DNA of 14,676 nucleotides from a virus (lineage: Duplodnaviria; Heunggongvirae; Uroviricota; Caudoviricetes; Schitoviridae). Where the stretch lies: positions 1 through 14,676 of the IMG/VR virus record IMGVR_UViG_3300028490_000001, one strand, 5' to 3'. Below are positions 5,831 to 6,187 of this stretch, one piece after another. The notes under the pieces are model-generated. The model saw nothing but the letters and a program-made list of their open reading frames with translations. It ran no database searches and was not told where the DNA came from. Position 1 is the first letter of the stretch; every line of letters begins with the position of its first letter. A program made the position numbers and the translations under genes.

Positions 5831-6187
5831 TTTGGCATAGAGTATATGACCTGTGTGAACAGGAAGTATGCTAAATGTAAGACCAAGAACCACGTAGACA
5901 CCACCGTTTAAGTGTTCGCAGTCCATGTGTGGTTCCGAAGAGTGAGCTTTCGTAACAGCTCTCAACATAAGACTAGGCTTGATTTATTAAGCTAGTAGTC
6001 CTACCATTAAAGTCAGTAATAAAACCGACTGCAGTCCTGCTAAGAGGGACTAGTTATTCGAATAGGGTAATGAGAGCCACCGGTTATGGGGCTTTGTTTT
6101 ATGCAAACAGTTTTCCAGCTAGAAAGGTAAACCTGTTACGCGTGGGTAAGATTTCGGGTTATACCACGTTAAATACTGAACCCGCCA
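5831..6187 (+). ncRNA. Candidate ~360-nt structured ncRNA ending in an H-type pseudoknot and CCA
   Basis: No ORF; GC-richer than flanks; consecutive hairpins at 5831-5875, 5887-5935, 5944-5961, 5971-6000, 6011-6030, 6033-6051, 6073-6095 and 6106-6137; pseudoknot 6141-6184; CCA 6185-6187. Confidence 0.55.

Follow-up and report, generated by a model that had tools for sequence, protein, structure and literature searches.

Candidate small RNA cassettes, among them a predicted pseudoknot ending in NCCA, at the head of a tRNA cluster in an N4-like phage

The interval between the Sak4 and SSB genes

Stable RNAs without assigned function are a long-known feature of phage tRNA clusters. The present study concerns positions 5831-6187 of a 14,676-nt stretch of phage DNA (the window), an interval at the head of a tRNA cluster which carries several small elements, among them M6, a hairpin followed by a pseudoknot that ends in NCCA. 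The source record is a complete phage genome of 78,676 bp with direct terminal repeats, and the window is its first 14.7 kb. Because the genome has a primase, a Sak4-like annealing protein, an SSB, a fragment match to a T7-type RNA polymerase and a terminase, the phage is classed, on these sequence markers, as N4-like; N4-like phages are also the best isolate matches of the Sak4-like protein. The interval lies between the Sak4 and SSB genes, begins 3 bases past the stop codon of a small open reading frame (ORF) and extends as far as the tRNA cluster, whose first element marks its end. The upstream gene stops at 5827 and coding resumes only within the tRNA cluster. On the + strand of 5828-6190 the longest stop-free run, counted independently of a start codon (ATG/GTG/TTG), is 69 codons and includes a 40-codon piece that starts with Met. 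No credible ORF was found inside 5828-6190, and the earlier reading of this stretch as ORF-free stands.

A preliminary description, made from the letters of the window, had taken the interval as one hairpin-dense RNA of about 360 nt. Relatives were gathered through homologues of SSB and Sak4, which gave 20 further arrays in the same gene interval, or 21 with our own. It was observed that nhmmer matched the relatives to parts of the stretch only and never to the whole. The interval could be divided into modules M1 to M6 (Table 1). M1 is present in 19/21 arrays, M5 in 12 and M6 in 12; M2 and M3 are limited to our genome and the relative L121, and M4 to our genome. M5 is followed by M6 in 7 arrays, and a degenerate CCA-less tRNA is followed by M6 in 5 (L124, L127, L220, L325, L327). 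L220 and L325 have the opposite order, with M5 downstream of M6, while L218, L219 and L236 have M5 without M6 and several arrays have M1 as their sole module. Since the modules occur separately and in other orders among relatives, the interval is best read as a mosaic of about six small cassettes, apparently gained, lost and reordered, and not as one 360-nt RNA. By the same comparison three of the cassettes (M1, M5 and M6) are conserved.

The single-RNA claim is thus set aside, its parts being separate and re-ordered in relatives, and other claims of the preliminary description are narrowed. The whole 357 nt fold better than shuffled sequences only to a modest extent (z -1.97; 4/100 shuffles). 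The hairpins do lie where they had been placed, but the one at 6074-6094 competes with the pairing that comparison supports for M5 and is absent in relatives. The proposal of a conserved, structured non-coding RNA of the tRNA cluster is borne out by covariation but not at the proposed scale, since the conserved pseudoknot-CCA unit spans some 90 nt, or some 185 nt together with M5, and the remainder consists of separate cassettes. An "empty" stretch of a tRNA cluster is in this way resolved into small covariation-supported cassettes, each of which can be made and assayed separately. Among these are two covarying RNA motifs absent from Rfam (M5 and M6) and a conserved element at the array head (M1).

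Table 1. Positions of the cassettes and adjoining features in the window
Feature	Position	Strand	Description
102-aa ORF	5519..5827	+	lipoprotein-type signal; stop codon bounds the RNA array; 36% identity to the same-place ORF of L121
M1	5833..5885	+	array head; invariant ends UGGCA ... UGUAAGNCCA flank a hairpin of free sequence and length
M2	5886..5935	+	hairpin, closing stem GAACC/GGUUC; inner sequence common to L121 only
M3	5940..5963	+	small hairpin, common to L121 only
M4	5971..6000	+	hairpin unique to own genome; z -2.9
M5	6004..6089	+	P1 6004-6007/6086-6089; URAAG; P2 6014-6017/6028-6031; loop AAURAARCCG; variable insert; CGG 6081-6083
H (5' half of M6)	6099..6140	+	U-rich leader, AUGYAA, hairpin, UACG/UUAG junction
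Pseudoknot-NCCA (3' half of M6)	6141..6187	+	stem 1 6141-6145/6164-6168; stem 2 6156-6160/6179-6183; A-rich loop 3; tail GCCA
Pseudo-tRNA adjoining M6	6188..6270	+	7-bp acceptor, ACCA, 8-nt T-loop; anticodon loop of 6 nt (one base short) containing CUA
tRNA genes	6273..7469	+	Gln, Phe, Asn, Ser, Ile, Met, Met and an HNH-split tRNA

The conserved modules and their neighbours

M6 itself consists of two parts, since its 5' half, H, also occurs without the knot: paralogues of H lie 5' of M5 in six relatives. H is always found 3' of a U-rich linker and 5' of a helix. In the 3' half, the strands of stem 1, the A-rich linker (6169-6175) and the CCA (6185-6187) were all found where the preliminary description had placed them, and an acceptor-like stem of the next element does begin at 6188. 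For stem 2 a helix of 6 bp had been claimed; its strands (6155-6160/6179-6184) are present, but the relatives favour 5 bp with a 4-nt GCCA tail, the extra pair 6155-6184 being possible in 5/8 sequences and impossible in 3/8. A Watson-Crick pseudoknot of 5+6 bp ending at CCA was met in 5/5000 shuffles of the 45-mer. A blind scanner which asked only for an H-type knot ending at NCCA led in ten arrays to this same site, preceded by the same hairpin, and in the control 2/218 shuffled CCA sites reached an equal score.

In 8 distinct M6 sequences all pairs of both stems are formed with different letters, against 57% paired overall and 46% for stem 1 when strands were swapped between sequences. Each of the four positions of stem 1 is filled by 3-4 types of pair, and in stem 2 positions 3-5 covary and the first pair is always G-C; the parses were made per sequence within one clade, and these pairing figures therefore overstate independence, the change of letters being large nonetheless. 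A profile built without our own genome recovers 6099-6187 with E 6e-9. The two stems together have 10-14 bp, close to what the acceptor and T stems of a tRNA add up to (12 bp). The 3' end is NCCA in 10/11 listed copies, with L124 ending in ACC-U. The discriminator before CCA is, across the eight sequences, G, U, G, A, U, U, A and A; among the same eight, pair 3 is never G-U, and neither G3-U70 nor any other fixed identity was seen. The next tRNA or tRNA-like gene usually follows within a few bases, which is the spacing between tRNA genes, and all domains found upstream of M6 are without a CCA of their own. The covariance model of M6 (R1) finds this clade only, with 0 in 30 other virus records and a single copy in our genome. 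A literal pseudoknot pattern was too loose, giving chance matches, and a pattern for a second type of M6 found nothing. Judged by sequence comparison, M6 is a real, conserved and Rfam-uncatalogued knot with a tRNA-like NCCA end.

M5 is a compact motif whose variable insert here forms two hairpins (6033-6051 and 6053-6065). In an alignment of 19 sequences 85% of cells are paired and 8 pairs show two-sided changes; 0/500 shuffles reach this level of cells paired, and controls with a slid register are all at or below 41%. The distal CGG is complementary to the CCG of the loop and both are invariant in 19/19, so a third pairing is plausible, though the invariant letters leave it without covariation. 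A pattern scan gave 22 further viral loci, including those of unrelated phages, and on inspection all have the same architecture. In these other phages M5 stands directly 3' of tRNA-Thr in large tRNA clusters or between two genes, the shortest copies being about 50 nt. The pattern is nearly absent from bacterial genomes: apart from 3 chance matches there was 1 real copy, which adjoins tRNA-Thr on a contig of 524 nt. An earlier three-part pattern had recovered three known loci together with apparent chance matches. Six M5 loci gave no match in Rfam, and M5 can be regarded, on its sequence distribution, as an uncatalogued motif widespread in phages. M5 was also considered as a degenerate tRNA-Ser, but the required D-arm register is contradicted by the covariation. 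In a group of unrelated phages (L329, L331, L342 and similar) a minimal 53-nt M5 lies between two replication/recombination genes, a location which suggests a cis-acting role there.

M1 is kept where tRNAs are lost (L214, L237) and occurs in two copies in L131. Its CCA can pair with its own 5' UGG and hence need not be a free tail. It folds better than shuffles (z -4.4), and the + strand folds better than the - strand in 14/19, which suggests an RNA-level element; we infer that it may be a cis-acting processing or protein-binding site. RNAalifold gave no consensus for M1, the inner hairpin being unalignable. A role as N4 middle promoter was unsupported, the N4 review giving only an AT-rich element from -7 to +2. 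The closing stem of M2 recurs upstream of the SSB gene in most relatives. In the window it closes a hairpin at 7949-7979, before the ribosome-binding site of SSB, which is found in most relatives, even tRNA-less ones, and may serve as an operator of SSB or as a site of RNase III type.

The tRNA cluster has several unusual members. Calling at default thresholds missed the tRNA-shaped elements 6188-6270, 2843-2913 and 7303-7386; the first of these, the pseudo-tRNA, was called neither by ARAGORN nor by Rfam and had no homologue in the relative loci collected at that stage. At 6530-7036 lies a tRNA near-identical to the intact tRNA-Trp(CCA) of L124, with an insert of about 430 nt in the anticodon loop that contains an HNH endonuclease ORF (6612-6992). 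As the insert has neither a group I core nor a terminal G, this tRNA would be either dead or joined by an unknown route. The 92-nt element at 7853-7944 has a G3-U70 acceptor, ACCA and a T-arm, lacks the D stem and resembles a minimal tRNA-like domain of transfer-messenger RNA (tmRNA); it likewise had no homologue in the relative loci collected at that stage. A second, weak group of tRNA-like calls lies far from the main cluster, at about 60040-60430 of our own genome (G000:C1). On the other side of the interval, a Phage_gp49_66 gene (4746-5042) occupies the place where relatives carry anti-defence genes beside Sak4, and small genes of anti-defence sponge families are clustered upstream of Sak4 in L124, L126, L127, L216, L219 and L220.

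The relatives carry further cassettes. A small repeated hairpin with a GGAAAGAC loop motif, absent from the window, has 1-3 copies per array in L121, L126, L127, L130, L131, L219, L226 and L230. Another pseudoknot cassette, conserved-looking by eye and also absent from the window, occurs at L220:4168-4230, L325:3700-3752 and L327:940-1000. Short, minihelix-like hairpins ending in NCCA stand among the tRNAs at L124:9725-9760, L127:8880-8917, L325:3925-3962 and L121:2240-2272. At L130:5324-5449 and L131:2660-2785 the 5' half of a tRNA without T-arm runs directly into a complete tRNA-Met, which in L131 is followed by an ORF and then by a lone tRNA 3' half. Degenerate tRNAs with shortened D arms lie at L121:1878-1945, L126:5994-6066 and L127:9030-9101; the one in L127 is given the anticodon UUA by ARAGORN and would read a stop codon.

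Possible roles of M6

Our preferred reading, to which we give an even chance, is that M6 could be a generic acceptor-end mimic, a portable 3' cap which lets the host enzymes of tRNA maturation finish and protect a small phage RNA. Modularity, the two stems of the pseudoknot and the NCCA are directly seen, and the rest of the mechanism we infer. The array would be read as a single + strand transcript, with which the finding of no terminator-like site in 5300-8000 is consistent, and would be cut into pieces like tRNA operons. RNase P type cleavage at 6188, the 5' end of the next element, or ordinary 3' trimming would leave a CCA end at 6187. Through the knot, an RNA whose 5' end is distant could carry a tRNA-like 3' end, a helix overhung by NCCA that needs no pairing partner at the 5' end, and generic tRNA-end enzymes could mature, repair and protect the RNA so ended. 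What results would be a small, stable and uncharged RNA, some 90 nt long if it consists of M6 and some 185 nt long if it consists of M5+M6 (in other phages, of a degenerate tRNA plus M6). M6 is read as a portable tRNA-type 3' cap because every upstream domain found is without CCA, and the knot might serve whichever domain lies upstream. The variable discriminator and the lack of G-U at pair 3 fit generic end recognition and not one synthetase.

Several points weigh against a cap. The tRNA elbow matters to RNase P and to the CCA-adding enzyme, and no T-loop mimic was identified in M6. For M6 alone RNAfold prefers a competing non-knotted fold (z -0.7). The eight M6 sequences form one clade and are not independent, and parsing the stems sequence by sequence favours pairing. 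About 9/21 arrays are without M6, which is thus dispensable. Finally, a cap leaves the conserved unpaired letters of H and M5 unexplained.

M6 could instead act as an acceptor-end decoy, absorbing host defences or toxins that work on tRNA CCA tails (Cas12a3-type nucleases, tail-modifying toxins) and sparing the real tRNAs; we consider this unlikely. Cas12a3 cuts CCA tails, tolerates stem changes and cleaves truncated stem-CCA substrates, a tolerance which favours a decoy, but it binds truncated substrates 62-fold more weakly (PMC12851939), and a catalytic nuclease would consume a decoy that it can cleave. Helix-closing NCCA sites number 101/402 in the arrays vs 127/1344 in shuffles, real tRNAs being counted, which speaks for a decoy. 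So do the sponge genes Sequestin, Lockin and Acb2/Tad1 just upstream of Sak4 in relatives, although a gene neighbourhood is no proof of function. Variable identity elements would suit a generic decoy, but a plain hairpin-NCCA would suffice and the knot is not required. The authors of the Cas12a3 paper remark that viral tRNAs are unable to escape the nuclease readily; if M6 and tRNA do compete for nucleases that attack CCA tails, M6 would be a source of the viral resistance which that paper calls unknown (PMC12851939). A wider form of the idea, which we regard as doubtful, is that M6 is the phage counterpart of the pseudoknotted acceptor arm of plant viruses, forming with other helix-NCCA cassettes an undescribed decoy counter-defence against CCA-tail attack, while M5 is a separate, widespread and uncatalogued phage ribozyme or aptamer.

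Somewhat less probable still is a role of the cassettes in cis, as processing elements: H and/or M5 would be a nuclease site or a self-cleaving ribozyme by which the polycistronic tRNA precursor is cut, and the pseudoknot-CCA would only guide the cut at the next tRNA, leaving no stable RNA. In several unrelated phages M5 follows immediately 3' of a tRNA-Thr that lacks CCA, and in others it is intergenic, a context that resembles that of theta ribozymes (PMC10879173); H always lies after a U-rich linker and before a helix, and the invariant unpaired letters of M5 are typical of a catalytic or binding core. Against such a role, M5 and M6 lack the strand order of HDV-like (hepatitis delta virus), pistol, twister and hammerhead ribozymes and no Rfam ribozyme model scores, canonical tRNAs are cut without an upstream CCA, and the NCCA kept on the knot is left unexplained.

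We regard as very improbable a true aminoacylated tRNA-like structure (TLS) of the kind found at plant-virus 3' ends. M6 has a pseudoknot immediately before NCCA, a G-C first pair and a helix near 12 bp, as such a structure should, but it has no T-arm, D-arm or conserved anticodon, its hairpin loop varies in length and sequence, and there is variation at the discriminator and at pairs 2-5 as well. In TLS-Val the T-loop and the anticodon loop are conserved, and 12 bp lie between the T-loop and the CCA (PMC7749636). Least probable of all is the single ornate RNA of about 360 nt: seven close relatives keep the order M1, M5, M6, and neither a CCA-free gap nor a terminator proves a cut between modules, but M1 and M5 are separated by about 90 to 500 nt, filled with unrelated sequence (in L226 a tRNA is part of it), M2-M4 are missing from most arrays, the order is reversed in two, long-range pairing is not conserved and z is only -2.

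Relation to known RNA families

When the window was scanned with Rfam together with 12 loci from relatives and 6 loci with M5, the only matches were tRNAs and an unrelated freshwater-1 RNA, in keeping with the earlier claim that the RNA is uncatalogued. Phage isolates, searched by blastn with the entire stretch and separately with M6, with M5 and with one tRNA+M6 copy, gave chance or tRNA-only matches. Several known folds were tried and rejected. A group I intron core would need a P3, for which there is no space given the P7-like words at 5971 and 5996; of RNase P RNA there is just a short CR-V-like word and no P4; as a tmRNA tag template, the frames that start from GCA/GUA differ in length (2 to >40 codons) and share no ending. 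The strand order of twister and hammerhead is absent in M5 and M6. Stem 1 and the linker of M6 resemble P1/J1-2 of pistol, but the RNA ends after the knot and thus lacks the P2, P3 and G-U cleavage site that should follow, and no Rfam model scores. In the literature no description of these motifs was found, a comparison that does not cover the 10,006 viral candidate RNAs of PMC10690425.

The theta ribozymes, which are minimal HDV-like ribozymes, are also small pseudoknotted RNAs beside phage tRNA genes, and M5, like them, lies 3' of a tRNA in some phages (PMC10879173). As HDV-like ribozymes, which have a nested double pseudoknot of P1, P1.1, P2, P3 and P4, the modules fail: M6 has no P3/L3, P1.1 or P4, P1 of M5 closes the whole motif, and Rfam gives no match. 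GOLLD and ROOL, with which the preliminary description had compared the interval, are often near phage tRNA genes (PMC5737381), as the present cassettes are. However, they are single large conserved folds and not a mosaic of cassettes of 30-90 nt, and their Rfam models did not match at any threshold tried, so this comparison falls away.

The likeness to plant-virus structures holds in part. As in TLS-Val (the TLS of turnip yellow mosaic virus, TYMV), a 3' H-type pseudoknot builds the terminal helix before NCCA, so that pairing of the 3' end with the 5' end is not needed, and this is why plant-virus mimics employ a knot (PMC7749636). The differences are also clear. TLS-Val reaches its 12 bp by a T stem and two short stems (PMC7749636), whereas M6 has no T-loop-like hairpin 5' of the knot and its pseudoknot stems alone total 10-14 bp. 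M6 has a single hairpin of variable loop in place of D-arm and anticodon arm, its discriminator is G, U or A, and no identity is fixed. It lies inside an operon of a double-stranded DNA phage (a 78.7-kb genome with terminase and primase) and not at the 3' terminus of a positive-strand RNA genome. With T-, D- and anticodon arms and fixed amino-acid identity missing, M6 was not accepted as a member of the viral tRNA-like structures; what stands of the analogy is the knotted NCCA end.

T4 rnaC and rnaD (species 1 and 2 RNAs) are, like M6, non-decoding structured RNAs in a phage tRNA cluster, adjoining tRNA genes. Unlike M6, rnaC keeps a canonical T arm, and for both RNAs the predicted fold has ordinary nested stems; their existence as stable RNAs is established, while the present cassettes are candidate RNAs. 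R1 finds nothing in the T4 locus (L328), and there is no blastn match to suggest homology. By its position M6 nevertheless belongs with the small non-decoding RNAs of phage tRNA clusters, and its pseudoknot-NCCA end, in a DNA phage, is a bacterial-virus parallel to the way in which plant viruses construct an acceptor end.
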